Below are positions 4,075 to 59,727 of a stretch of 64,000 nt of DNA, piece after piece. The notes beneath the pieces were generated by a model, which was given only the letters and a program-made list of their open reading frames with translations, was not told where the DNA came from and ran no database searches. The translations under genes were made by a program, and so were the position numbers. The stretch comes from Escherichia coli (lineage in GTDB: Bacteria > Pseudomonadota > Gammaproteobacteria > Enterobacterales > Enterobacteriaceae), in NCBI RefSeq assembly GCF_003790525.1, contig NZ_CP033635.1; one strand, 5' to 3'. The number at the start of each line of letters is the position of its first letter. The stretch's first letter is position 1.

Positions 4075-4109
4075 CAGCCCGACGAACTGTTTCGCCGGGC
4101 TGATTTTTA
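4075..4109. terminator. Hairpin between convergent perM and focB, likely bidirectional terminator
   Basis: cagcccg...cgggctg 7-bp stem followed by ATTTTTA on the plus strand; overlaps the focB stop codon. Confidence 0.5.
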
Positions 4110-4955
4110 GGGTTCCTGACGTAAATAAATAGCCCGATAACAAATACTCACCAGCACTGCACCGCCGATAATATTACCCAGCATCACCGGGAGCAGATTG
4201 GCGGTAATAAAATGGCTGACCGTCAGTGCCGGAAAATGGTCTGCGCTACTGTGCGCCAGTTGCCAGAAGGAGGTAGGGGCGAAATGGCGAATGGCAATGG
4301 CGAACGGAATCACAAACAAATTGGCGATACAGTGCTCAAAACCACTGGCGACAAACAGGGTGATGGGCAAAATCATGGCGACGATTTTGTCGCATAACGA
4401 ACGTCCGCAATAACTCATCCACAGCGCCAGGCAAACCATCACATTGCACATAATGCCGAGGCTGACTGATTCAGTAAATGTATGATGCATTTTGCCCTCG
4501 GCGCAGTGTAAAACCGCGACTCCCCACATCGCGTTTTCACTCATCACCAGCCCGGAAAACCAAATTAACAAACTGAAACAGGCAATACCTGCCAGATTAC
4601 CGCAGGCCACCAGAAGTGCATTAATCAGCCATGTTCGCCAGCTAATAACGCCCCGACTTTTTGCCATCACCGTCATTACCGACGAGGTGAACAGGCTGGT
4701 GCCGCAAACCGCCAGCAAAATAAAGCCGAGCGTAAAGCAAAGGCCTCCCACCAGATGGGTTAATGCCTGTGAAGACGGGGCATCGGCGATAACGGTAAGG
4801 TAAAAAGTAAATCCGATCGCCATAAACACGCCTGCGGACATCGCCATTAAAAAGACCGACACTTTGCTGCGGGCAATTTTATGGGCGGCAATCCGTTCAG
4901 CGATTGCCGCTTTTCTGGCGCTCAACTGCAAGTCGAAAGAGAGTTTGTTTCTCAT
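4107..4955 (-). CDS. focB: Formate channel (FNT family), last gene of the hyf operon
   Basis: 282-aa membrane ORF, 21 bp downstream of hyfR on the same strand. Confidence 0.9.
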   Translation of the reverse strand: MRNKLSFDLQLSARKAAIAERIAAHKIARSKVSVFLMAMSAGVFMAIGFTFYLTVIADAPSSQALTHLVGGLCFTLGFILLAVCGTSLFTSSVMTVMAKSRGVISWRTWLINALLVACGNLAGIACFSLLIWFSGLVMSENAMWGVAVLHCAEGKMHHTFTESVSLGIMCNVMVCLALWMSYCGRSLCDKIVAMILPITLFVASGFEHCIANLFVIPFAIAIRHFAPTSFWQLAHSSADHFPALTVSHFITANLLPVMLGNIIGGAVLVSICYRAIYLRQEP

Positions 4956-4976
4956 GAATACTCCTGCAAAAGCAGA

Positions 4977-6989
4977 TTACAACACCTCGCGAACCGAGAT
5001 CCCCAGACGCTGCATTCGTGACAGCAGCGTGGTGCGCTTCATCCCTAATCGTGTCGCCGCGCCACGGGGCCCGGCAACAATGCCATTGGTTTCTCGCAAT
5101 ACCTGAACAATGCGCTGACGTTCTTCTTCGTCATTCTCTGGCGTCGTCGGGTGCAGCAACTGCGCCATTGAACTGCGAAGCGCTGAATCTTCATTTAGCG
5201 TCGGCAGTAAACGGCTTTGTCGGACATTAAGATGTAAATTCAGACTGTTACCGCGAGTCAGTAGTACCGCTCGCTCAATCACGTTTTCCAGCTCGCGCAC
5301 GTTGCCCGGCCAGTCCCACGACATCAACTGGCGTAGCGCCTCGGTCGGGATGGCGTCAATTGCGCGATTCATATGGCGCGCCATTTTTTGCGTGAAATGC
5401 TTTGCTAAAAGAGGGATATCTTCCGGACGGTCGCGCAGTGGCGGCAGTTCCAGTGGGAAGACATTCAGGCGATAAAAGAGATCGCTGCGAAACTGGCGAT
5501 CTTCAACCATTTGCCACAAATCACGGTTGGTGGCGGCAATGACTCTGACATTTACCGGGATCGTTCTACTCCCGCCGAGACGCTCAATCTCCCGTTCCTG
5601 CAATACGCGCAGCAGTTTAGGCTGAAGTTCTAACGGCAGATCGCCAATTTCATCGAGAAACAACGTGCCGCCATCGGCAATTTCAAAACGACCACGATGG
5701 GTATTAATCGCACCAGTAAATGCCCCTTTGTCATGACCGAATAACTCACTTTCCAGAAGACTGGCGGGGATGGCAGCGCAGTTGATTTTGACCAGTGGCT
5801 TGTCGCGTCGTGGGCTAAGTTGATGGATCGCTCTGGCGATCACCTCTTTGCCGGTTCCGGTTTCACCACAAATCAACACCGTACTGTCGCTCTTCGCCAC
5901 AATATCTACCTGCTGGAGCAGGTCTTCCATTGCCTGGCTTTGATAGATAATGTCACCGACGCCCAGATTCGAAAGGAGCTGCTCGCTAAGCTGGTGGTTT
6001 TCTTGCTGCAAGCTTTCCTGCAAATCGGTCATGCTGCGCCAGGCATCGGCATTGCCAACGGCAATAGCGATGCGATCGGCAATATGTTGTAGTAGCTGGC
6101 AGTTTTCCTCACTAAAGAGAGTGGAAGAGGTATGCGCCAGCAACAATGCACCCGGTGTATGGTTGCCAAAGGTGAGCGGTATAAGGAGCGCAGATTCGCA
6201 GCCGTTAGATGCAAGTAAGTGTAATAACGGGTCGCGTTGCCAGAGAAACAGATCGTCTGCACGGTGCGTCAAGGTCGGTTGTCGGGTTTGTAGCGTTTGT
6301 GTCAGCAATACACTGTCGCCAGCCATATTGCGTGGCAGACACGCACAATGTGAGGCAGAAAGATCGCTGCACCACAGGCTGAACTTCTCGTTCTTTCGAT
6401 GATCGCCCAGTACCATACTGACTGAAGCCAGACCGAAAAAATGATGGATCTCACGAGCGACGTCAGCGATCAGATTGTCGAGATCAAGATGTGACAACAC
6501 TGCATTAGTGATATCCACCAGTACCCGATGATGATCGCGATCTTTCTCCAGCAAACGCAGCGCCACCTGCTGTTCTTCATCATTGAGCCATGATTGCAGA
6601 ACCGGAGTGATTATGTGTGCCAGCCAGTTAAACAGTGTGCAATCCTGGGGAGTAAAACGACTGCCGTGGGTGCGAATAAAGCGTAGCTCCGCCATTCCAC
6701 TACTGCCGAGAAGGACGGCGTGGCGCGAATAATCGACCATCTCACCCTGATACTTTGTTGTTGCCGTCACATCGCTGCCATCATCATGGTAGCGGTAATA
6801 GAAGTTGCTTTTGAGAACATGCAGTTCAATAAGTTGTACCGGGCTGAACGGCGGCGGCAGCGGGATGAAGGCGCGTAATAAAGACGCCTTGCCGTGTTTC
6901 TGCGCTAACCGCTCCGCGAGCATTCCGTTTACCGCTTCAATTGTTATTCCTTGCGGCGGGGCAAACATCGCCTCGTCTGACATAGCCAT
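4977..6989 (-). CDS. hyfR: Sigma54-dependent transcriptional activator of the hyf operon (FhlA-like enhancer-binding protein)
   Basis: AAA+ sigma54-interaction domain (GETGTGKE Walker A; GAFTGA motif as ...[10 protein letters not shown]...) and C-terminal HTH; track ORF begins with TTG at 6992, the ATG at 6989 matches MAMSDE. Confidence 0.9.
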
Positions 6990-7018
6990 CAACAGTCCTT
7001 ATTAATGAGAAATCCTTC

Positions 7019-7432
7019 TCACGCAATTTTTCTGGCCATCAGATAGATGGCCGGTTCCTGCACAATTTCATCCAACAGATGAATGAATTGAATGCTACGC
7101 GCCTGCCACGCCGACGTCGCGTCATCTGCCAGTGGCGCGAATGCCCGGGTCAACAGGGCGGTGTGGCTGGCGTCAATAACAATCTCACCAAAAGTCATCA
7201 CCCCCAGCATCTTACGTCGGGCTTGCTCCTCTTCGACCAGTGCAAGCCAATCTTCGTATTCCGTCAGTGGGCAGCGGAAGGCGACATTCAGACAATCAAT
7301 CACGCCAACGTGATGGCCGATAGCTAGCGAGTAATACATTACCTGAGAGCTGTGTTCCGGCATCTCGTCGCTACTGGCGACAAACTTTTTTCGCAGCGTC
7401 CAGAAAACAATTTCCCCGCACTCTTCAGTCAT
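7019..7432 (-). CDS. hyfJ: Hydrogenase-4 maturation/assembly protein (HycH homolog)
   Basis: Track ORF 7019-7495 (158 aa); the internal ATG at 7432 gives the 137-aa protein [11 protein letters not shown]... immediately after the hyfI stop. Confidence 0.85.
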
Positions 7433-8183
7433 GTAACCCCCGGAGTACGCGAAAGAGTTGCTGAACGATACTATTGAGACGTGGATCGTCGGCATCGCGC
7501 AACCAGGTGTTAACCCGATTTCCTGTAGGATCGTCGCTTAAATGGCGCAGGAGTCGATCGCAAATTTCTCGCCCTTGACGATAGCCCGCCAGCCGCCTCG
7601 CTTCTCGCTCAATGGCGATACGCTGTGATGGCGGGATCTGCGGCCACAGCGGTTGCATGGTCACCCCGGTGGGATCGCGATAATCCACCGCGTGAATCTT
7701 CTGTTGCAGCAAACCGAGCGCCACGGCGAAACCGTGAATGGTGGCGGCCGGTGTTGGCGGGCAGCCGGGGATCCAAACATCAATGGGGACAATGGTGTCG
7801 CTGCCGCCCCAGACGCTGTAAAGATCGTGGAAAATACCGCCGCCGACACCGCACGCGCCGTAGGAAACACAAATTTTATGATCGGGGGCAGACTCATATG
7901 CCCGAAGTGCAGGCATACGCATCGCACGGGTGACTGCGCCAGTAAATAACAAAATATCGGCGTGACGCGGTGATGAAACAACCTTAATGCCAAAACGTTC
8001 TGCGTCGAATACGGGTGTGATGGCGGCAAAAATTTCGATTTCGCAGGCGTTACAGCCGCCGCAATCGACGCGATAAACGTAAGCCGAGCGACGGATATCC
8101 TGTAGCAAATGCTGCTTCATCTTTTGCGTTTGCTCGTCCAGCGTAATGGGCTGGCTGACATGTTGCGTAAGCACTGGACTCAT
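7425..8183 (-). CDS. hyfI: Hydrogenase-4 small subunit (NuoB-like, [4Fe-4S])
   Basis: 252-aa ORF with NuoB-type cysteine motifs ([10 protein letters not shown], ...GCPP); overlaps hyfH and hyfJ. Confidence 0.9.
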
Positions 8184-8725
8184 AGCTGCTCCTTAGCCAC
8201 CAGCGGTTCATTTGTGTCGTCGTTGATCAGCGTCGCGCGTTGTTTGCATTCCGGGCAGACGCTCGCTTGCGCCCGTAACATTTCGCGGTTTTGTGGTGCA
8301 TTTTGTTGCTGTGCCAACAGTTCTGCAGCCAGTGCGACGGTTTTTTGCGGGGCAAACGGGCGTTCGCAACGGCTGCAACGTTGTAGATGGAACGTCGCGC
8401 GGGTATAGAGATCGGCTTTATTGGTGACGGTCAGTTCAAAGTTATTGGTAAGCTGAATGGCTCTGGTCGGGCACACTTCTTCACAACGTCCGCAGTAAAT
8501 ACAACGCCCCAGATAGAGCTGCCAGGTGCGCGTATTTTGCTGGTCGTCGGTCTGGATAGTCAGCGCATTTGCCGGACAAGCACAGGCGCAGGCACCGCAG
8601 GCAATACATTGGCTGGGCATCAGGTCCGGTTTCCCGCGAAAGCCTGGGCTGACCTCCAGTGGCGCGAAGGGATACTTCACCGTCGCGGTTCCGGCGCGCA
8701 TAATAGTTTTCAGTAACTTCAGCAT
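8180..8725 (-). CDS. hyfH: Hydrogenase-4 ferredoxin-like subunit (2x[4Fe-4S])
   Basis: 181-aa ORF with two CxxCxxCxxxCP motifs. Confidence 0.9.
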
Positions 8726-8734
8726 TTTCTGTCC

Positions 8735-10450
8735 TTACTTCAGCGGCGAACGGTTACGATCAATGCCGTAGCGTTCGATCTCTTTATACGGCACGGTTTT
8801 TGACTGGCGCTTGCGCACATCAACCAGCGTCACACGGTCGGTACAGGAGTAACAGGGATCAAGGCTACCGATAATCAGCGGTGCGTCAGAAACGGTATTG
8901 CCGCGCAGCATGTAACGCAGCACTGGCCAGTTGGCGTAGGTGGCGGCACGACAGCGCCAGCGGAACAATTTTTGGTTATCACCGAGCATGCTCCAGTGCA
9001 CGTCTTCACCGCGTGGCGCTTCAACAAAGCCCAGCGCGAATGCGTGAGGTTTATAGCTAAAGCCTTCGGTCAGCAGTGGGGTATCCGGCATGTTGTCGAG
9101 GGCAAATTCCAGCATTGCCAGCGAATCAAACGTCTCTTTGACACGGACCATCACGCGGGAGAAGACATCGCCGCCGGTAAAGGTAAACAGCGTTTTGGGA
9201 ATATTACCGTAGTCGGCGTAGGGGTGATCAAAGCGCAAATCACGGGCAAAACCACTGCCGCGGATCAGCGGCCCGACAGGGCTATAATCACGGGCGATTT
9301 GTCGGTCGAGAATGCCAATGCCCTGAGTGCGTTGTTCCATATTCGGCGTGGCAAGCAGCATCTCTACCAGCTCCGACACGTCGGCGCGCATCTCGCGCAC
9401 CAGTTTCAGCGTTTGCAGACGTTGCTCTTTGAGAATATCGCGGCGAACACCACCAATCAGATTCAGACCGTAGGTTTTACGCGACCCGGTCAGCAATTCC
9501 GCCATCGTCATCGACTTTTCCCGCACGCGGAAAAATTGCATAAAGCCGGTATCAAAACCAACAAAATGGCAGGAGAGGCCAAGGTTGAGCAAATGACTAT
9601 GCAGCCGTTCGACTTCCAGCAGAATCGAGCGAATAGTATGCGCTCGTTGCGGCACCTCAATCCCCAGTGCATTTTCAACCGAGTTGGTATAGGCCACACT
9701 GTGGGCAAAACCGCAAATCCCACACACGCGGTCGGATAAGAAGGTCACTTCGTTGTAGCCCATCCGCGTTTCTGCCAGTTTCTCCATGCCGCGATGGACA
9801 TAAAACAGGCGGTAATCAGCATCGACAATTTGCTCGCCATCCACAAACAAGCGGAAGTGACCTGGTTCATCGGAGGTGATATGCAGCGGGCCGACAGGGA
9901 TCACCCGCGCATCGCTGTTGCCCTCGTTGATAAACGGATACGTTTCGGTATCAGTCGTCGGTTCTGGGCGCAGTCGATAATCCATCGCGTCTTTGCGCAG
10001 CGGATGCATATCTTCCGGCCAGTCATCGGGCAACACCAGCCGACGCTGATCCGGCAGGCCAACCGGAATCAGCCCGTACATATCGCGAATTTCTCGCTCG
10101 CCCCAGACCGCGGCAGGGACGCGCGGTGTGACTGACGGAAACTCCCGACTGTCGGCATCGACCAGTGCCTTCACCACGATCCAGCATTTTTCGGCCCCTT
10201 CCATAGAAAGGGCATAATAAACCGCGTAATGACCGTTAAGTGTCCGCTCGTCGTTGCCAAACAGGACTGGAAGCCAGCCATCATGTTGATAATAAAGATA
10301 ATGCACAACGTCAGGCAGCAGATTGATTTTCACCGTAATGGTGACCTGTTCAGGCGTTTGTCGCTCTTCATCCAGCACCGCGCCGGGGAACTGCGTTTTC
10401 AGGGCGGCGAGAATCGCTTCGCCACGATTTGACGATGAATTAACGTTCAC
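8735..10450 (-). CDS. hyfG: Hydrogenase-4 large catalytic subunit (NiFe, HycE/NuoCD-like)
   Basis: Track ORF 8735-10495; the likely start is the GTG at 10450 ([11 protein letters not shown]) with GGAGA upstream, overlapping the hyfF stop. C-terminal DPCxxC NiFe-binding motif present (DPCYSCTDR). Confidence 0.85.
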
Positions 10451-12020
10451 TGTGTTTCTCCGAAACAGATGCGGTGCCTGAAGGCAAAAAATCATGCCAG
10501 GTGCTACGTTGTGCAGGCAGGTCGTGCGTCCCTGAGAGGACTATAGTGGAAGCGCCCGCCAGGATCCTGATGACAGGTTGTGGAATATGCGTTCCCATCG
10601 CCAGCATCATGACCAGCAGAATCACCATTGGCGAGGTGGTCAACCAGCCAAGTTCACCCCGGTTAACGGCCTGCGGCGGTTTCGCCATTAACACCCGCGC
10701 AGCCATCCGTACCAGGCCCGCCAGCACCAGCGTTAACAGCAATAACAGCAGGACGATAAGCAGCAGATGATTACGCGCCAGCCCTGCGGTAACGGTCATA
10801 AATTCGCTAAGAAAAATGTTGAAGGGCGGCATCCCGGCCAGCGCCAGCGCACCGCCGCCAAACAGCACGGCGGTAAATGGCATGATTTTGAGCATTCCGC
10901 AGACGACGTTGAGATCGCGCGTGCCGTACTTGAGCAGTACATTGCCGGAACCGCAGAACAGCAGCGTTTTTGCCAGACTGTGGTTTAAGGTGTGCAGCAG
11001 CGCGGCAAAAATTCCCAGCGGCCCGCCAATGCCTAACGCCACCGCGACCAGTCCCATGTTCTCCACGCTGGAGTACGCCAGCAGACGCTTAATGTCCCGC
11101 TGTACCAGAATGAAAAATGCCGCCACGGCAACCGACAACATGCCGAAGATGAGCAACAACCGGTTGGGGAAATCGCTGCCGATGGCCTGGCAAATAATGA
11201 TGTAATAGCGAATCAGCACCAACAGCGCGCAGTTCAGCAATACGGCGGAGAGCAGGGCGCTGACCGGACTCGGCGCTTCACTGTGAGCATCTGGCAGCCA
11301 GGCGTGCATGGGGAATAGCCCGGTTTTAGTGCCAAAGCCAATTAGCACAAACACAAAGGCCAACAGCATTAATGTTGGGTCAAGCAAGGACGATTGCTTA
11401 AGAACCTCGCTCCAGAATATCGCCATTTCTGCCTGCGGCATAACGCTGGCGGCGTTGGCGTATACCAGCACGGTACCGAACAGACCAAAAGCGACACCAA
11501 CAGTACAAATAATGATGTACTTCCATGCAGCTTCCAGCGATGAACGCTGACCGTAAATGCCTACCAGAAACGCCGAGCTTAAGGTGGTGGCTTCGATCGC
11601 CGCCCACATCACAATCAGGTTATTGCTGGTAACAACCAGCAGCATGGTGAACAAAAACAGATGGAAGAAACCGTAGTAATCGCACAGCGTAACGGGTGAA
11701 AGCTCGCCGTGCTCCACTTCATGACGCATGTAGCCAATCGAGTAAACACCGGTGAGAAAGCCAATCACACCAAGAATGGCGAGGAACAAACCGCCCAGAC
11801 CATCAATATGAAGCCACAGTCCCGCAGCGAATATTTCTCCCGCATCAGCGGCTGTTTGGACCACCCAGAGTGCCAGAATCAGCAGCAGTGTGATCCCTAA
11901 GCTATGTAATACTGTCACCGCGCGAGTCGGAGAGTGCCCCCGTTTCCGGCAGGCAAAACAGAGCAGCGAAAAAAGCAGCGGCGTGAGCAGGAGTAAAGCG
12001 AACATCACAGAATAACTCAT
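10440..12020 (-). CDS. hyfF: Hydrogenase-4 membrane subunit (NuoL/M/N antiporter-like)
   Basis: 526-aa polytopic membrane ORF in hyf order. Confidence 0.9.
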
Positions 12021-12024
12021 CTCA

Positions 12025-12675
12025 TTATCCCTTCAGCGCGGTCAAGTTGTTCACGTTCAGCGTGCCGTGGGTACGCCATATTTTTCTTGCCAGTAACACC
12101 ATCACAATGACGGCGAAGATGGCGTCGGTAGCGATACCAATTTCCACCAGTTCCGGTGCACGCCAGGCAAGAAGCGCCAGCACCAGATGGGAGCCGTTTT
12201 CCATCAGGCAGTAACCAAAAATTTGCCGCAGGATATTGCGCTGGCTGACAATGCACAGCAGGCCAAGCAGAAAATGACCTAACGCCACCGCCAGCGCCGG
12301 TTTCAGCCCGGTAGCCATCGGTAGCTTCACGGGCTGAACGACAAATGCGCAAAGCAGGACAATTAACGCCGCGAGCAGTGTCATCATTGCCGGACCGAAT
12401 AACGCTTTTTCCGGGAGGTTCTGGGGAATATTTCGTGCAGCGTAAGTCATGATTAACGGTACCAGCAGCACTTTGGTGATAAAGGCGCTGGCGGACCAGA
12501 TCAGCAGTTGCTCTGCGGCGAACAGGCACGAGAGAGTGGCGAAAATAGACACCAGCACCAGCGACTGGCAGGCGTAAAATCCGCATGACAGGCGATAGCT
12601 TTTGACACTAATCACAAACAGCGATGTCAGCATCATCAGTCCCGCCAGATTATTTACGATCATAGAACCGGTCAT
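12025..12675 (-). CDS. hyfE: Hydrogenase-4 membrane subunit
   Basis: 216-aa hydrophobic ORF between hyfD and hyfF. Confidence 0.85.
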
Positions 12676-12686
12676 TCATCATCTCC

Positions 12687-14126
12687 TTACTGCAACCAGG
12701 TCGCGGCGATTACGCTGGAAATCAGCGACATCACAATCAGTACAATCAACACCAGGCGCATTGATCCTGGCAGCGGTGCGGCATCGGCGACGGCCTCGCT
12801 CGGTTTGCCAGGCACGACGCGACCAAACCAGCGAATAAACCAGGCGAAACTGGCGACCGATTCAATCATCAGCAGAATCATGGCGGGCAGCAGGATCCAG
12901 TACTCCACTGACAACGAAAAACCGGCAGCAAACAGCGGGAATTTACTGAAGAAGCCGTTGAACGGCGGTACGCCAGTAATCGCCAGCGCGGCTACGCAGA
13001 AACCCACGCCTGGCAACGGCAGGGTGTGCAATACGCCACGCAGACGCGGCAACAAGCGCGTGCCGCAGCTGTAACTCAGCGCACCTGCTACAAGGAAAAA
13101 CAGGCTTTTAGCGAACGCGTGGTTGACGATGTAGGCGATGCTGCCCTCCAGCGACAGCCGCGAGCCGAAGATGGAGAGCGACAAGCCGAAAAACATCCAG
13201 CCAAGTTGAGTGATGGTCGACCAGGCCAGCAACCGCTTCATATCCTGCTGTGGCAAATACATCAGGAAGCCGTAAAGAATGGTGACCAGTGCCATAACCA
13301 TGCCAACGCCGCCAATCACATGCGGGATATTGCCGCCGTCGATAATGGCACGGGCAAAAATGTAAACGCCCACTTTCACCATCGATGCGGCGTGGAGATA
13401 GGCGCTGATCGGTGTTGGCGCTTCCATTGCATCCGGTAGCCACGCTTGCATCGGTAGCTGGGCCGATTTCCCCCACGCGGCAAACAGAATGCCGCCATAA
13501 ACCAGATAACGTGCGTCGCCGTGTAACTCGCTCATCGCGCTAAGCGCAAACGTTCCGGTCTGCAAAAACAGCGTGGCGGCGGCAAGATACAACCCCAGCG
13601 AACCGATATGAGTGATAAGTAACGCTTTTAGTGCTGAACGCTGCGCTTTATCGCTCTGGTAATAACTGATCAACGCCCAGGAGCAGCCGCCCGTAATTTC
13701 AAAAAACAACAACTGACCGAGCAGCGTTGAGGAGAGTACCAGTCCCGCCATCGCGCCGATAAACACCAGCAAAAATGCGTAATAACGATTCGTGCCGTTA
13801 TGCGGGTGTTCGCGATTTTTATCCGTCAGATAACCCGTGGAGTAGATCGTGACCAGCAAACCGAGGAACACCACCACAAACAGAATCAGCGTACTCACGC
13901 GATCAATGACCAGGCCAAACAACGCCACATCCCCCACGTTGACCAACGTCAACGTGACGGCAACTTTATCGGCCTGATAAAACGCGGAGATCAGCGACAA
14001 CATGCACAGCGTGGTCAGCGCGGCGAACAAAATCCCCCATTCGGCGGCCCGACGTTGTGGCGAAAACGAAACGACCAGTGCGCCGATAAAAGGCAGCAAT
14101 AACGTCGTCAGAGCAAGATTTTCCAT
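12687..14126 (-). CDS. hyfD: Hydrogenase-4 membrane subunit (NuoL/M-like)
   Basis: 479-aa polytopic membrane ORF. Confidence 0.9.
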   Translation of the reverse strand: MENLALTTLLLPFIGALVVSFSPQRRAAEWGILFAALTTLCMLSLISAFYQADKVAVTLTLVNVGDVALFGLVIDRVSTLILFVVVFLGLLVTIYSTGYLTDKNREHPHNGTNRYYAFLLVFIGAMAGLVLSSTLLGQLLFFEITGGCSWALISYYQSDKAQRSALKALLITHIGSLGLYLAAATLFLQTGTFALSAMSELHGDARYLVYGGILFAAWGKSAQLPMQAWLPDAMEAPTPISAYLHAASMVKVGVYIFARAIIDGGNIPHVIGGVGMVMALVTILYGFLMYLPQQDMKRLLAWSTITQLGWMFFGLSLSIFGSRLSLEGSIAYIVNHAFAKSLFFLVAGALSYSCGTRLLPRLRGVLHTLPLPGVGFCVAALAITGVPPFNGFFSKFPLFAAGFSLSVEYWILLPAMILLMIESVASFAWFIRWFGRVVPGKPSEAVADAAPLPGSMRLVLIVLIVMSLISSVIAATWLQ

Positions 14127-14142
14127 ATTCCGTCAGTGCTCC

Positions 14143-15090
14143 TTACAGACCGGTTAACCAGAAGACCCAGGCAAGCGCAGCAAGGCTGAAGCCAAGCCAG
14201 GTCACATGGTGAATGAGTAAAAAACGCCCGCGTGCCAGCGTGTTTTCTGCGATAGAGGCCAGAACAAAAATCAGCAAAACCTTGAGCAGCGTAACGACAA
14301 GTGAAGTCAGCAGGCAGGTGAGAGAAAGCTCTTGCGCGCGCCCAAAGGGCAGAAACAGGGCCACAAACAGTGATGCCATCACGACCTGTTTCAGCCCCAG
14401 CCCCAACTTCGCCAGCGCCAGCCCGGCACCGGAATATTCGGTCAGCGGGCCTTCCTGTAATTCCTGTTCTGCTTCAGCAACATCAAAGGGAATTTTTCCC
14501 ATCTCAATGAAGCAGGCAAAACCACAGGCCAGTAACGCCAGTACGGTGGTTAGCGGCGAGTTCCAGCCCGTCGCCAGCGTCTTGCTGATCATCTCGATAT
14601 GCGTGGAATCCGCTATCAGCGCCAATACCAGCAGTGAGAGAATGAGCATGGGTTCGACCAGAATGCCGAGCGTTAACTCGCGACTGGCACCGATTCCCGC
14701 AAAGGGGCTTCCGGTATCCAGCCCGGAAAGAGCAAAGAAAAAACGAAATAGGGCAAGAAGATAGATAAGGGTGATCAGATCGCCGCCGCCCGCAAAAGGG
14801 GAAACAGTAATAAATAGTGGTAGGGCCATCGCCAGCACCAGCATGCTGCTGATTAATACCCACGGCATCAGGCGGAACATCAGACCTGAAGATGTCGGCG
14901 CAACTTCCTGGCGTTTAAACAGTTTGTGGATATCGCGATAATCCTGCCAGATCCCCGGTCCGCGACGGGAGTGCATACGCGCGCGTATCTGCCGGGAAAT
15001 CCCCGTAAAAAGCGGGGTTAGCGCCAGCAGAATCACGGCCTGTGCTAACGCAAAAATGATCAGATATCCGTCGCAAAGAGTTTGTCTCAT
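14143..15090 (-). CDS. hyfC: Hydrogenase-4 membrane subunit (NuoH/HycD-like)
   Basis: Track ORF starts with TTG at 15111 and overlaps hyfB; the ATG at 15090 (MRQTLCDGY) lies downstream of the hyfB stop with AAGGAAA upstream and gives 315 aa. Confidence 0.85.
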   Translation of the reverse strand: MRQTLCDGYLIIFALAQAVILLALTPLFTGISRQIRARMHSRRGPGIWQDYRDIHKLFKRQEVAPTSSGLMFRLMPWVLISSMLVLAMALPLFITVSPFAGGGDLITLIYLLALFRFFFALSGLDTGSPFAGIGASRELTLGILVEPMLILSLLVLALIADSTHIEMISKTLATGWNSPLTTVLALLACGFACFIEMGKIPFDVAEAEQELQEGPLTEYSGAGLALAKLGLGLKQVVMASLFVALFLPFGRAQELSLTCLLTSLVVTLLKVLLIFVLASIAENTLARGRFLLIHHVTWLGFSLAALAWVFWLTGL

Positions 15091-15100
15091 GGTGATTTCC

Positions 15101-17119
15101 TTAGACGGCAATAGCGATTAGCAGCACAACCAGTGCGGCGACCACATACAGGCAATAGAGACGAAAGTCGCCGCTTTGCAGATGCTGTATTTCTTTGGCC
15201 AGCCGTTGGGTGGCGCTCACGATGGGGCGGATCACCCGCTCATCCCAGAAGGGTTCTGTGCTCTGAGCCCTGGCGGTGACGTGCGCAAGACCTTTGTTCA
15301 GCCTCAGCGTAGGGTCGAGCTGTTGTCGTAGACGAAATAGCGCACAAAAGACCACACGCAGCGGCTGCATCACGCCATTGCCTGACGGGGCCATCGCATT
15401 ATCCCAGCCGTAGCCGCATGCCCAGGCATCTCCTGTGCGACGAAACGCTGCGCGGCGCGAACGACACCACAGCCAGTAAAGGCCAGGCAGCAAAGGCATC
15501 GCCAGTAGTAACAGCAACAGTAATGAGGGAGTGACCCGTGTATGAAACGTGCCGGGTACAAGTGCTATTCCGCTGGCGACAGTGACGGGAGGGGTATTGG
15601 TAAACGCATGGGCAATGTGCATTATCTTCGGTGCCAGCCAACTGGCACTAAGCGCAATGAATACGCAGAGTGCCGCGAGCAGTAGCATGGCGACGATCAT
15701 CGTATTTGGCACGTCCTGTGCCTCTTCAGCGTGTGTACTGCGCGGCGCACCACAGAAAGTAATGCCGTACATTTTGACGAAGCACATTACTGCCAGCCCA
15801 CCAGTGACTGCCAGCATCACCATAGCAATAGGACCCGCAAGTTGTAGCGCTACGGCTTCCACACGACTTAGTGAGAACAGCGACTGCCAGGTGTACCATT
15901 CGCTGATAAAACCATTCAGCGGAGGAATGGCTGATATCGCGAGGCAACCAATCAGGCATGCTGCGGCTGTCCACGGCATCCGTTTTGCCAGTGCCCCCAT
16001 TTTTTCCATGTCGTGGGTATGCAAACGCGAAATAATCGCACCCGCGCCGAGAAATAGCAGCCCTTTGAACAGCGCATGGTTGAGCAGATGAAACAGTGCG
16101 CCGAGCAGTCCAACCATGGTGAGCAGCGGGTCGTGCAGTGACAGACCGACCATGGACACACCGACCGCCAGCAAAATAATGCCGACGTTTTCGACGGTAC
16201 TCCAGGCCAGCAGCCGTTTGATATCCTGTTCCGCCAGCGCATACAGCACGCCCAGGAGCGCGGAGATTGCGCCGATCGCCATCACCAGAATGCCCCACCA
16301 CAGCGGCAAACCCGTTTGCGCCAGCAGATCCATCGCCACTTTCAGGATGCCGAAAATACCGATTTTGACCATTACGCCAGACATCAACGCCGAAGCGTGC
16401 GATGGTGCGGCAGGGTGAGCGCGCGGCAACCAGCTGTGCAACGGCATCATCCCGGCTTTCGCGCCAAAACCGAAGAAGGCCAGCAGGAACACCGCCGACG
16501 CCAGCCCCGGAGAAAGTGAAAGCGTGCGGAAACTGGCAAAATCGAGGCTGCCGCTTTCGCGCCCCATCAGCAAGAAGGCGATCATAATCAGCACCGATCC
16601 GGCGTGGGCGATAAAAACGTAGAGCATGCCAGCGTTGATTGACGTTTTATCCTGCCTGGCAATGACCAGAAACCAGGAAGACAGCGACATCATTTCAAAC
16701 AGCACGATGAACCAAAAAGCGTTATCCATCACCAGCAGGGCAACCATCGAGGCGATGAAAAGATTCATAAAGAAGCCCATCGCCGCCGCGCCTTTGCCCT
16801 CGTATTCGCGCATATAAGTCAATGAATAGAGCGAACAAACCACCACCAGCAAGGAGATAACCAGCACCATAAATGCCGAGAGGCTATCCATTCGCAGGGT
16901 TAAATCGGCAAAGTCAAAAGGCGTGGCAAAACGGGCGACTAAAGTTACGCCTGCATGTAATTGCGTAATTCCGCTGATGATGCCAATCACGCCGCCCACC
17001 AGCGATGTGATGCCGGAAAGCTTAATAGCCAGTCTGTCCAGACCGAGTAAAAACAGCGAAGCCAGACTGGCAAACAGATAGAGGATCAGCGACCAGGTTA
17101 ATAATTGCAGGGCATCCAT
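15101..17119 (-). CDS. hyfB: Hydrogenase-4 membrane subunit (NuoL-like proton-pumping subunit)
   Basis: 672-aa polytopic membrane ORF; start overlaps the hyfA stop. Confidence 0.9.
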   Translation of the reverse strand: MDALQLLTWSLILYLFASLASLFLLGLDRLAIKLSGITSLVGGVIGIISGITQLHAGVTLVARFATPFDFADLTLRMDSLSAFMVLVISLLVVVCSLYSLTYMREYEGKGAAAMGFFMNLFIASMVALLVMDNAFWFIVLFEMMSLSSWFLVIARQDKTSINAGMLYVFIAHAGSVLIMIAFLLMGRESGSLDFASFRTLSLSPGLASAVFLLAFFGFGAKAGMMPLHSWLPRAHPAAPSHASALMSGVMVKIGIFGILKVAMDLLAQTGLPLWWGILVMAIGAISALLGVLYALAEQDIKRLLAWSTVENVGIILLAVGVSMVGLSLHDPLLTMVGLLGALFHLLNHALFKGLLFLGAGAIISRLHTHDMEKMGALAKRMPWTAAACLIGCLAISAIPPLNGFISEWYTWQSLFSLSRVEAVALQLAGPIAMVMLAVTGGLAVMCFVKMYGITFCGAPRSTHAEEAQDVPNTMIVAMLLLAALCVFIALSASWLAPKIMHIAHAFTNTPPVTVASGIALVPGTFHTRVTPSLLLLLLLAMPLLPGLYWLWCRSRRAAFRRTGDAWACGYGWDNAMAPSGNGVMQPLRVVFCALFRLRQQLDPTLRLNKGLAHVTARAQSTEPFWDERVIRPIVSATQRLAKEIQHLQSGDFRLYCLYVVAALVVLLIAIAV

Positions 17120-17736
17120 TAGCGTTGCTCCTGAGTGAGGGAAAGGGGATCCTCCCCGCCATTGGCAAACCAGCTTGCGGCAAGGCGCTGTTTTTCTTTC
17201 ATCTGACGTTGCAGTCTATCGTCGGTGATCAGCCGTAACGCCTGATTCGGACAAGCGCGAACGCAGGCCGGACCTTCTGGCAAGAAATCACACAGGTCGC
17301 ATTTCACCGCGACGGTCTGGACACCCGGTTCCCAGCGCAGCAAAGCATGTTGGGTCGACACGTTTTCTTCGCCGTCTTTGAGTGAGCCCTCAGCCTGAAA
17401 AACATATTGCGCAGGGGCATTCACCGGACGGCTTCCTGAAGCGCTGATTGCGCCAAATGGGCAGACCACGGCGCAAAGCTTGCAACCAATACAAAGGCTT
17501 TCGTTGAGTTGGATCGCATCATCCCTCTGGGAGATGGCATTGACCGGGCAGACCTGCAGGCAAGGGGCTTCCTCACAGTGATGACACACGACAGGGGCAG
17601 TGAGTGTTGACGTCTTCGCCAGGGCCAGGCGCGGGTGTTGCTGTAAACCTTGCGTTTTATGCACGTCCGAACAGGCAGCGAGACAGGTATTACATCCTGT
17701 ACACCACAGTGGTTCGGCCACCACAAAGCGGTTCAT
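17119..17736 (-). CDS. hyfA: Hydrogenase-4 electron-transfer subunit (4x[4Fe-4S] ferredoxin, HycB-like)
   Basis: Track ORF 17119-17775; the ATG at 17736 (MNRFVVAEPLWCTGCNTC) is preceded by AGGAG; multiple CxxCxxCxxxCP motifs. Confidence 0.9.
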   Translation of the reverse strand: MNRFVVAEPLWCTGCNTCLAACSDVHKTQGLQQHPRLALAKTSTLTAPVVCHHCEEAPCLQVCPVNAISQRDDAIQLNESLCIGCKLCAVVCPFGAISASGSRPVNAPAQYVFQAEGSLKDGEENVSTQHALLRWEPGVQTVAVKCDLCDFLPEGPACVRACPNQALRLITDDRLQRQMKEKQRLAASWFANGGEDPLSLTQEQR

Positions 17737-17777
17737 GTCGGCTCCTTGAAAATGATATGAAACATTGCATTTCATAT

Positions 17778-17793
17778 TGCATAAAGAATGCCA
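17778..17793 (-). promoter_or_regulatory. Sigma54 (-24/-12) promoter of the hyf operon
   Basis: Minus strand reads TGGCATTCTTTATGCA (GG-N10-GC spacing, consensus TGGCAC-N5-TTGCA) about 40 nt upstream of the hyfA ATG; hyfR encodes the matching sigma54 activator. Confidence 0.6.
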
Positions 17794-17888
17794 GTCTGAT
17801 TAATTTAATATATTCAATAAGTTATGAATTAACTGTATTCTGAACGGTACAAAAATGATGGTCATTAACGTTCAGCAATAAATGGATT

Positions 17889-17933
17889 CGACACCCGTGT
17901 CGCAGGGGAAAGCGAGAATGTGATCTTGATCAC
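17889..17933. promoter_or_regulatory. Candidate upstream activator sequences for the hyf sigma54 promoter (two inverted repeats)
   Basis: CGACAC-CC-GTGTCG (17889-17902) and GTGATC-TT-GATCAC (17920-17933) lie about 100-150 bp upstream of the -24/-12 element, the usual position for enhancer-binding-protein sites. Confidence 0.35.
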
Positions 17934-17988
17934 GAGAAGTGAGGTGTGCTGGCCGCAAGCACAGCCAGCACGGAATGGAGCAAAGTAA

Positions 17989-18459
17989 TCAGGCGTGTTC
18001 TTTCAGCCAGTTCAGCACAACGTCGTGGTGATTGCTGGTTTTGAAATCGTCAAAGACATGTTCGATTTTGCCATCAGCGTCAATCAGGAAGCTGATGCGA
18101 TGAATACCATCGTAGGTTTTGCCCATGAAGGACTTTTCACCCCAGACGCCGAATTGTTCGCACACCTGGTGGTCCTCATCAGACAGGAGCGTAAAGTTAA
18201 GCAGCTCTTTTTCCGCAAAACGGGAGAGTTTTTCGGGTTTATCGGTGCTGATACCCAGCACATCGACGCCCGCTTTTTTCAACTCATCCATGTTATCGCG
18301 TAAGCCGCAGGCCTGTACGGTACAGCCGGGGGTCATGGCTTTCGGGTAGAAATAAACCAGAACACGCTGTCCCTGGAAGTCGGTCAAATTAACTTGTTCT
18401 CCGTCTTGATCCGGCAAGCTAAATTTCGGTGCGATATCACCGGCTTTCAGTGGATTCAT
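17989..18459 (-). CDS. bcp: Thiol peroxidase (peroxiredoxin, bacterioferritin comigratory protein)
   Basis: 156-aa ORF with peroxiredoxin active-site context (FYPKAMTPGCT). Confidence 0.9.
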   Translation of the reverse strand: MNPLKAGDIAPKFSLPDQDGEQVNLTDFQGQRVLVYFYPKAMTPGCTVQACGLRDNMDELKKAGVDVLGISTDKPEKLSRFAEKELLNFTLLSDEDHQVCEQFGVWGEKSFMGKTYDGIHRISFLIDADGKIEHVFDDFKTSNHHDVVLNWLKEHA

Positions 18460-19031
18460 TACTTAACTCCATCCTGTTCATCATGTTGGGAATAATTGAC
18501 GACGTTAATACTGCCTTGTGCATTGAGTTCTGTACATAGGGCTTTGAACGCTTGCTCAATATTTGCTGCGTCCGCAGATGCGGGGCTGTGGGCAGTTATC
18601 TGAATATGCAACTGCGCAGCCCGTTCATTTTCAGCAGGTTGCGTGCGCGACACCAGCTCCGCAATGTTCATATGATGCGCGTCGAAAAGTGCTGTGAAGC
18701 GTTCAATTAAATGCGGGGAGTCTGCCACATCGACCTGAACCCAGACAGATGCTGGCATTGGCGGACGCGGACGCGCCGTCGTGCGCTTCATCACGATTAA
18801 AAGATCCAGTTCGGCACCTTTCAACGGTAACGTTGATTCAATCAGAGTAATGGCATTCCATGAACCGGAAAGCAGCATGATAAACGTGAACTCTTCTCCC
18901 AGCATCGCCAGGCGACTGTCTTCAATATTACAGCCGCAACTACTGACATGACGGGTGATGGTGTTCACTATTCCAGGGCGATCGGCACCCAACGCAGTGA
19001 TCACCAGATAATGTTGCGATGACAGTGTCAA
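18459..19031 (-). CDS. gcvR: Glycine cleavage system transcriptional repressor (ACT domains)
   Basis: Track ORF 18459-19097; the recalled GcvR N-terminus MTLSSQHYLVITALGADRPG corresponds to a TTG start at 19031 with AGGAA upstream (190 aa). Confidence 0.8.
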   Translation of the reverse strand: MTLSSQHYLVITALGADRPGIVNTITRHVSSCGCNIEDSRLAMLGEEFTFIMLLSGSWNAITLIESTLPLKGAELDLLIVMKRTTARPRPPMPASVWVQVDVADSPHLIERFTALFDAHHMNIAELVSRTQPAENERAAQLHIQITAHSPASADAANIEQAFKALCTELNAQGSINVVNYSQHDEQDGVK

Positions 19032-58857: not shown

Positions 58858-59727
58858 TTACCGCTTTCTCGAGTGTGCTTTCTGGTTGTCAAACCAGTGG
58901 AAATAACTGATCACGCCTTCGGCAATCGCTGTGGCGATTTTCTGGCGAAACGCTGCAGTGCCTAACAGCCGCTCTTCTTCCGGGTTGGTGATAAACGAGG
59001 TTTCCACCAGCACCGACGGAACCGACGGCGATTTCAACACCACAAACGCGGCTTGTTCGGTGTTGCGGCTGTGCAGTTTATGCACCGGCTTAATCTTTTT
59101 CAGAATATGCGAGCCGAGCGTCAGGCTGTTTTTAATAGTATCGGTTTGCACCAGATCAAACAGCACTTGCTGCAATAGGTGATCCTTGTCAGTCGCCTTT
59201 TTACCGGCAACTTCATCGGCGCGGTTTTCGCGTTCAGACAGGTATTTCGCCATTGCGCTACTTGCGCCGCGGTTAGAGAGAGCAAATACCGAAGCACCGG
59301 CAGCTTTCGGGTTAGTAAAGCCGTCGGCATGAATTGACATAAACAGGTCTGCGCCGTGTTTATGGGCGATTTCAACGCGATCGTACAGCGGGATAAACGT
59401 ATCGCCAGAACGCGTTAAACGCGCATCAATGCCATGATTACGCAAAATGGAACGGACGTTTTTAGCAATCGCCAGCACCACATGTTTTTCTTTCGAACCG
59501 TTGCGTCCGATCGCTCCGGTATCAATCCCGCCGTGGCCTGGATCGAGAACAACGACACGTTTGCCGCCGTTTTTTTTTGCTTTCGGCTTGCTGTGTCCGT
59601 TGCTGGTTTTTAAAGGTTCTTCTTTGGCGATGGCTTGCGACATTCCTGACAACGTCAGGGCAGCCAATCCGGCTTTCAGCACCTGGCGGCGCGAAGTGAG
59701 TGTTTTTAGTGGTTTAAAAGTGCTCAT
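58858..59727 (-). CDS. amiA: N-acetylmuramoyl-L-alanine amidase, Tat-exported
   Basis: 289-aa ORF with Tat-type signal (SRRQVLKAGLAALTLSG); 3 bp upstream of hemF. Confidence 0.95.
   Translation of the reverse strand: MSTFKPLKTLTSRRQVLKAGLAALTLSGMSQAIAKEEPLKTSNGHSKPKAKKNGGKRVVVLDPGHGGIDTGAIGRNGSKEKHVVLAIAKNVRSILRNHGIDARLTRSGDTFIPLYDRVEIAHKHGADLFMSIHADGFTNPKAAGASVFALSNRGASSAMAKYLSERENRADEVAGKKATDKDHLLQQVLFDLVQTDTIKNSLTLGSHILKKIKPVHKLHSRNTEQAAFVVLKSPSVPSVLVETSFITNPEEERLLGTAAFRQKIATAIAEGVISYFHWFDNQKAHSRKR

Follow-up and report, generated by a model that had tools for sequence, protein, structure and literature searches.

Two perfect inverted repeats, here called P1 and P2, lie upstream of the sigma54-dependent promoter of hyf, the hydrogenase 4 operon, raising the question of which regulatory proteins, if any, would bind them. 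In the stretch of Escherichia coli DNA analyzed here (64,000 nucleotides, hereafter the window), an earlier note had proposed both repeats as candidate sites for the enhancer-binding proteins HyfR or FhlA. That proposal was supported for one of the two: P1 shares its geometry with motifs in the upstream regions of K-12 fdhF and hydN and keeps a fixed, conserved position, whereas P2 proved to be a site for CRP. We therefore favor, with a probability of about 0.72, a reading in which positions 17889-17933 form the distal half of the known hyf regulatory region, with CRP on P2 and FhlA and/or HyfR on P1.

The region from 17100 to 18500 was found to be 100% identical to that of E. coli SMS-3-5 and to others, and the RefSeq annotation gives the gene order gcvR-bcp-hyfA-hyfB, with all four genes on the minus strand. 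Both palindromes fall inside the 252-bp spacer between bcp and hyfA (Table 1), and a scan of 17650-18100 returned neither a sigma70 promoter nor an intrinsic terminator. Work published between 2002 and 2004 reportedly described the hyf operon with its sigma54 promoter, the activators FhlA and HyfR, and the need for CRP. Skibinski et al. in 2002 are said to have mapped the start of transcription 30 bp upstream of hyfA, to have demonstrated binding of purified HyfR to the hyf promoter fragment taken as a whole, and to have observed that HyfR activates hyf far above the level seen for hyc or fdhF. In addition, Self et al. in 2004 reportedly found that optimal HyfR-driven hyf-lacZ expression requires CRP-cAMP. 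Following the 2002 work of Skibinski et al., we take the start of transcription to be at approximately 17766, 30 nt upstream of the hyfA ATG. This position is consistent with sigma54 ChIP-seq data, in which ATGGCATCCTTTATGCA, the K-12 equivalent of the promoter, was recovered as a sigma54 site, with the distance to hyfA given as 31 (PMC4591121). The sigma54 box of the window reads TGGCA-N7-TGCA, and its K-12 counterpart gave the strongest RpoN-holoenzyme SELEX peak in a screen supplemented with NtrC, and reached 92% in the screen with RpoN only (PMC8743547).

The operon also encodes a sigma54 activator of its own, HyfR, which is 51% identical to K-12 FhlA over 573 residues. Comparison of 18-residue stretches from the C-terminal helix-turn-helix showed that HyfR and FhlA are almost the same in this part. 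As the helix that reads the DNA is nearly the same in both proteins, it is plausible that they recognize one family of motifs.

Table 1. Features of the hyf regulatory region and associated genes; coordinates are those of the window, and centres are given relative to the assumed start of transcription at ~17766.
Feature	Sequence	Position	Strand	Remarks
hyfR, operon-encoded sigma54 activator		4977..6992	minus	ORF as listed; true start may be internal
hyfA, first operon gene under these sites		17119..17736	minus	ATG at 17736; RefSeq annotation, identical E. coli sequence
Perfect 8+8 palindrome	ATATGAAA-N7-TTTCATAT	17755..17777		Overlaps -12 box and start site
sigma54 -24/-12 promoter of hyfABCDEFGHIJR-focB	TGGCATTCTTTATGCA	17778..17793	minus	57 nt before hyfA ATG
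IHF-like site	ATTCAATAAGTTA	17812..17824	plus	One mismatch to WATCAANNNNTTR; centre ~ -52; weak consensus, consensus-level only
Conserved 16-mer	TGACCATCAYTTTTGT	17849..17864	minus	Centre ~ -90; candidate second activator contact
P1, probable FhlA/HyfR upstream activating site	CGACAC-GG-GTGTCG on the gene strand (CGACAC-CC-GTGTCG as listed)	17889..17902		Centre ~ -129.5
P2 extended, CRP-cAMP site	cGTGATCAAGATCACa (gene strand)	17919..17934		Centre ~ -160.5; consensus match, ChIP-seq, conservation
GC-rich hairpin	GTGCTGGC-N10-GCCAGCAC	17946..17971	minus	Just after bcp stop codon
bcp stop codon	TGA	17991-17989	minus	

Both repeats were found where the earlier note had located them (P2, without its extension, at 17920-17933), each with perfect 6-nt arms and a 2-nt spacer. 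Its estimate that they lie about 100-150 bp upstream of the promoter was also accurate, as the -24 box is preceded by P1 at a distance of 96-109 bp and by P2 at 127-140 bp. Perfect palindromes of the 6-N2-6 type number 22 in the window, against approximately 16 expected. The occurrence of two of them in a single 252-bp spacer had a probability of ~0.004 in Markov simulations with the gap fixed at 2, and of ~0.13, which is not unusual, when any gap from 0 to 6 was allowed. Since single palindromes are common, the case for function rests on conservation and not on the palindromes themselves.

Conservation was evaluated in an alignment of the spacer that included E. coli, Citrobacter amalonaticus, three other Citrobacter species and two Kosakonia species. 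The core of P1 and the half-sites of P2 are kept in Citrobacter and Kosakonia, and in Escherichia, Citrobacter and Kosakonia the centres of the two sites are separated by exactly 31 bp. Within E. coli, 4297 genomes carry the 55-nt stretch that spans both sites, and its sequence is identical in 3387 of them. Three variant genomes were fetched: the one representing the commoner class, with one to two mismatches, has changes only outside the palindromes, and a rare variant reads CAACAC in P1. A full-text literature search with both sequences gave a CRP ChIP-seq table as the only result for P2 and no pertinent result for P1; a match in a footprinting preprint was discarded, as it concerned a different locus, dtpA.

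P2 is a CRP site, not a site for an enhancer-binding protein. Like consensus CRP sites, it is built of the half-sites TGTGA-N6-TCACA, matching nine of their ten bases with a single mismatch, and it agrees with the 22-bp CRP consensus AAATGTGATCTAGATCACATTT at 16 of 22 positions, which is the best match on either strand of the whole window. In ETEC H10407, the same sequence, CGTGATCAAGATCACA, is listed as the motif of a high-confidence ChIP-seq peak of CRP located upstream of hyfA (PMC4287617), and genomic SELEX with CRP recovered hyfA as one of its known targets (PMC3105977), so that the evidence for occupancy comes from strains other than that of the window. Across genera, the half-sites are kept as YGTGAY-N4-ATCACA (with TTTGAC in Kosakonia) and the spacer varies, and the sites cGTGAtcaagaTCACA, TGTGAtcgcaaTCACA, TGTGActaataTCACA and TTTGAccgcgaTCACA are all found 31 bp from P1. 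The persistence of the half-sites together with the drift of the six central bases, as in TGTGAtcgcaaTCACA, TGTGActaataTCACA and TTTGAccgcgaTCACA, is the signature of a CRP site.

It was also possible to observe that the CRP site contains two GATC sites for Dam methylation, at 17922-17925 and 17928-17931. Other GATC sites covered by CRP are known to be under-methylated, and by analogy CRP occupancy could leave these two under-methylated as well.

P1, in turn, is probably an FhlA/HyfR site, judging from its resemblance to motifs in two FhlA-dependent upstream regions and from its distribution at related promoters. Its arms contain the pentamers CGACA and TGTCG with four bases between them, and it fits the pattern CGWCA-N4-TGHCG. 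The upstream region of K-12 fdhF has one match to this pattern, CGTCAAAACTGACG (CGTCA-AAAC-TGACG), 82 bp upstream of the -24 box, and that of K-12 hydN also has one, CGTCACTAGTGTCG (CGTCA-CTAG-TGTCG), 75 bp upstream of the -24 box. These are the only matches to CGWCA-N4-TG[ACT]CG in the respective 4-6 kb K-12 loci, and the 64-kb window holds two, of which the second, CGACACGTTTGCCG at 59553-59566, lies inside a coding region and was taken as a chance occurrence. In the hyc-hyp intergenic region, the best-studied target of FhlA, the strict pattern is absent and only a partial match, CGACACGGCGACGA, was detected. Local alignments of the hyf upstream region with those of hydN, fdhF and hyc returned the expected pairings of motifs, none of them convincingly better than shuffled sequences (P values of 0.06-0.95). 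The original footprints of FhlA sites are reportedly those of Schlensog 1994 and Leonhartsberger 2000.

The distribution of the pattern was then investigated at hyfA homologues, using one genome per species, which yielded 45 loci, 30 of them with a recognizable sigma54 box within 400 bp upstream. A pattern of the P1 type was present 30-140 bp upstream of that box in 27 of these 30 loci, in genera including Citrobacter, Kosakonia, Atlantibacter, Sodalis, Morganella, Providencia and Dickeya, as well as in a Photobacterium MAG and in some Betaproteobacteria. Its density was 8.7 per kb in the 30-140 bp interval and 0.085 per kb in these loci outside it, an enrichment of approximately 100-fold that should be read as an upper impression and not as a calibrated statistic, as the pattern had been widened to TGHCG after the Citrobacter sequences were seen and many of the loci are phylogenetically related. 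CGACAC and TG.CG do not vary among Escherichia, Citrobacter and Kosakonia, amid flanks too diverged to be aligned. Only E. coli has the perfect dyad, the right arm being TGCCG in its relatives, and the distance from the centre of P1 to the -24 box stays within 100.5-102.5 bp in Escherichia, Citrobacter, Kosakonia and Atlantibacter.

Two variants of the motif could be distinguished among these loci. Escherichia, Citrobacter, Kosakonia and Atlantibacter (loci L006-L015) carry the variant CGACAC...TG(C/T)CG, and Morganella, Providencia and Dickeya (among loci L016-L047) carry CGTCAY-TAR-TGTCG, which is like the E. coli hydN site. The CGACAC and CGTCAY variants may mirror differing specificities of HyfR and FhlA.

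The best-conserved upstream element of the bcp-hyfA spacer is neither of the palindromes. It is the 16-mer TGACCATCAYTTTTGT, which had escaped the earlier note and which is invariant, apart from one Y, in all eight aligned sequences, which included E. coli, four Citrobacter and two Kosakonia. It lies at a fixed distance of 70-72 bp upstream of the -24 box. The window contains no second copy of it, and it is absent from the hyc, fdhF and hydN regions of K-12. FNR, ArcA, NarL, ModE, NsrR, Cra and a sigma70 -35 box were considered by eye, and none fits the bases conserved across genera. In E. coli, the 16-mer is bracketed by an inverted repeat, CTGAACGTTA...TACCGTTCAG (17840-17875), with 10-nt arms that are 90% complementary; these arms are not conserved in the other genera. 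The 16-mer may be a second contact of the activator or a determinant specific for HyfR.

A stronger claim would be that this 16-mer is itself the true FhlA/HyfR site and that P1 is the site of another protein or some other conserved element. The conservation of the 16-mer and its distance from the -24 box, which is typical of activators, would agree with this, as would its weak likeness to ATGACATCGTTTTT, a stretch beside the hydN dyad, even though this likeness was not significant in local alignment (P ~0.07). Moreover, the preference of HyfR for hyf over hyc and fdhF, as reportedly found by Skibinski in 2002, calls for a hyf-specific determinant. However, the 16-mer shows no dyad symmetry and contains no CGWCA/TGWCG half-site, and it occurs in three genera only, whereas the P1-type motif is found at the sigma54 promoters of hyfA homologues in many more. 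We thus regard the 16-mer as unlikely to replace P1, which is retained as the site of FhlA and/or HyfR in our preferred reading.

It could also be argued, as the earlier note did, that P1 and P2 are both sites for enhancer-binding proteins. FhlA/HyfR dimers would then occupy a two-site activating sequence, and any CRP on P2 would be incidental or competitive. Enhancer-binding proteins often use dyads approximately three turns apart, which corresponds to the 31 bp between the centres of P1 and P2, and a published FhlA matrix (PMC7658346) scored P2 at 9.9 bits, the highest value in the spacer. Nevertheless, 33 positions in the window reach at least that score, and P1 obtained 5.0 of 17.1 bits, which 519 window positions equal or exceed; as hundreds of window positions scored equally well and the CRP site was even preferred, the matrix was considered non-discriminating as a test. 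In addition, P2 is near-consensus for CRP and is occupied by CRP in vivo, and the bases kept across genera are those of TGTGA/TCACA, including the outer T/G and A, not those of CGWCA/TGWCG. P2 is also without any half-site in common with P1 or with the fdhF or hydN motifs. Altogether, this makes a pair of activator dyads very improbable, and the assignment of P2 to CRP and of P1 to FhlA/HyfR is preferred.

That the palindromes are the product of chance, or hairpins at the bcp 3' end that act in the RNA, as terminators or for stability, and play no part in hyf control, is hardly credible: single palindromes of this type are indeed common (22 per 64 kb) and the region lies just downstream of bcp, but an RNA hairpin cannot close with a 2-nt loop, and the RNA reading is contradicted both by the predicted fold, which is dominated by the hairpin at 17946-17971 and pairs neither the arms of P1 nor those of P2 with each other, and by the pattern of conservation, in which substitutions between genera keep protein-type half-sites with no paired compensation, the conserved position is relative to the hyf promoter and not to bcp, and strains lacking hyf lose both palindromes with it (from ~17940) and retain bcp and the hairpin.

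The GC-rich hairpin that dominates the RNA fold (z = -3.6) has no T tract, which is why the scan makes no terminator call. In Citrobacter and Kosakonia, unrelated GC hairpins with T runs are found at the same place. This hairpin is the probable 3' end structure of bcp and the probable upstream boundary of the hyf regulatory region. Of 5426 complete E. coli genomes, 1128 lack the hyf promoter. In one such case, an ST80 strain (locus L055), yfgO (perM) directly follows bcp and the homology to the window stops at ~17940, just upstream of the CRP site, which indicates that the regulatory region and the operon (about 4100-17940) are absent as one block from that strain.

Between P1 and the promoter, the IHF-like site has a core, YAA-N4-TTGAWW, that is partly conserved and begins at a distance of 30-31 bp from the -24 box in three genera, with a perfect match in one Citrobacter (locus L007). 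The perfect 8+8 palindrome at 17755-17777 is an E. coli-specific feature, conserved neither in Citrobacter nor in Kosakonia; a repressor particular to E. coli might use it as an operator.

Based on our and others' results, the following sequence of events may be proposed for the preferred reading, with CRP on P2 and FhlA and/or HyfR on P1. The sigma54-RNA polymerase, as shown by others, is positioned at 17793-17778, where it waits in a closed complex. An oligomer of FhlA/HyfR, with HyfR taking part when it is expressed, would assemble on P1 and might also contact the 16-mer at -90. By analogy with hyc and hyp, a bend introduced by IHF at about -52 would loop the activator onto sigma54, and ATP hydrolysis, a property of this family of activators, would open the promoter. 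CRP-cAMP, whose occupancy upstream of P1 was reported by others, would probably serve as a co-activator that bends the DNA or stabilizes the activator, and its binding would tie the expression of hyf to carbon status. As 31 bp correspond to approximately three helical turns, CRP would be placed on the same face of the DNA as P1.

A further proposal is that HyfR and FhlA read different variants of one motif family, and that CGACAC-N3-TGYCG together with TGACCATCAYTTTTGT makes up an enhancer specific for HyfR. The two elements were seen together only in Escherichia, Citrobacter and Kosakonia. In this proposal, CRP, placed exactly three helical turns upstream, would be an architectural co-activator of a sigma54 promoter. 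We consider this proposal possible, if rather doubtful; if true, it would explain why HyfR activates hyf approximately 1000-fold and barely touches hyc and fdhF.

The biology of this region is, in its essentials, already known, and ChIP-seq has meanwhile located the CRP site as well. The present analysis adds three small things: the CRP site and the probable activator site are told apart at the level of single bases; a motif shared between genera, CGWCA-N4-TGHCG, keeps its distance from the promoter and could serve as a guide for footprinting; and an invariant 16-mer emerges as a possible carrier of HyfR specificity. In laboratory E. coli, hydrogenase 4 is almost silent, and a map of the hyf promoter assigning bases to proteins would help efforts to switch this enzyme on; beyond careful annotation, the significance of the work is small.

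Finally, the hyf region can be compared with known regulatory systems. CRP sites at sigma70 promoters are centred at -41.5, -61.5 or -92.5, whereas that of hyf is located far upstream of a sigma54 promoter, at approximately -160.5, a position from which the usual contacts of CRP with the alpha subunit of the polymerase are impossible. P1 resembles the FhlA sites of the formate regulon (fdhF, hydN-hypF, hyc and hyp) in lying upstream of a sigma54 -24 box, at 96-109 bp, and the fdhF and hydN motifs in being a dyad of pentamers with the same central gap of 4 nt; as in other FhlA systems, an IHF-like site is found between the activator site and the promoter. Differences were also observed, namely in the left arm, which is CGACAC in P1 and CGTCA in the fdhF and hydN motifs, and in the hyc-hyp region, where CGACA units occur as direct repeats and not as the dyad seen in P1. 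Beyond the formate regulon, the two- and three-site enhancers of NtrC at glnAp2 and of NorR at norV share with hyf the use of short dyads approximately 100-140 bp upstream and looping assisted by IHF, the latter being putative for hyf, but at hyf there is only one clear dyad for the activator, and the dyad next to it belongs to CRP.
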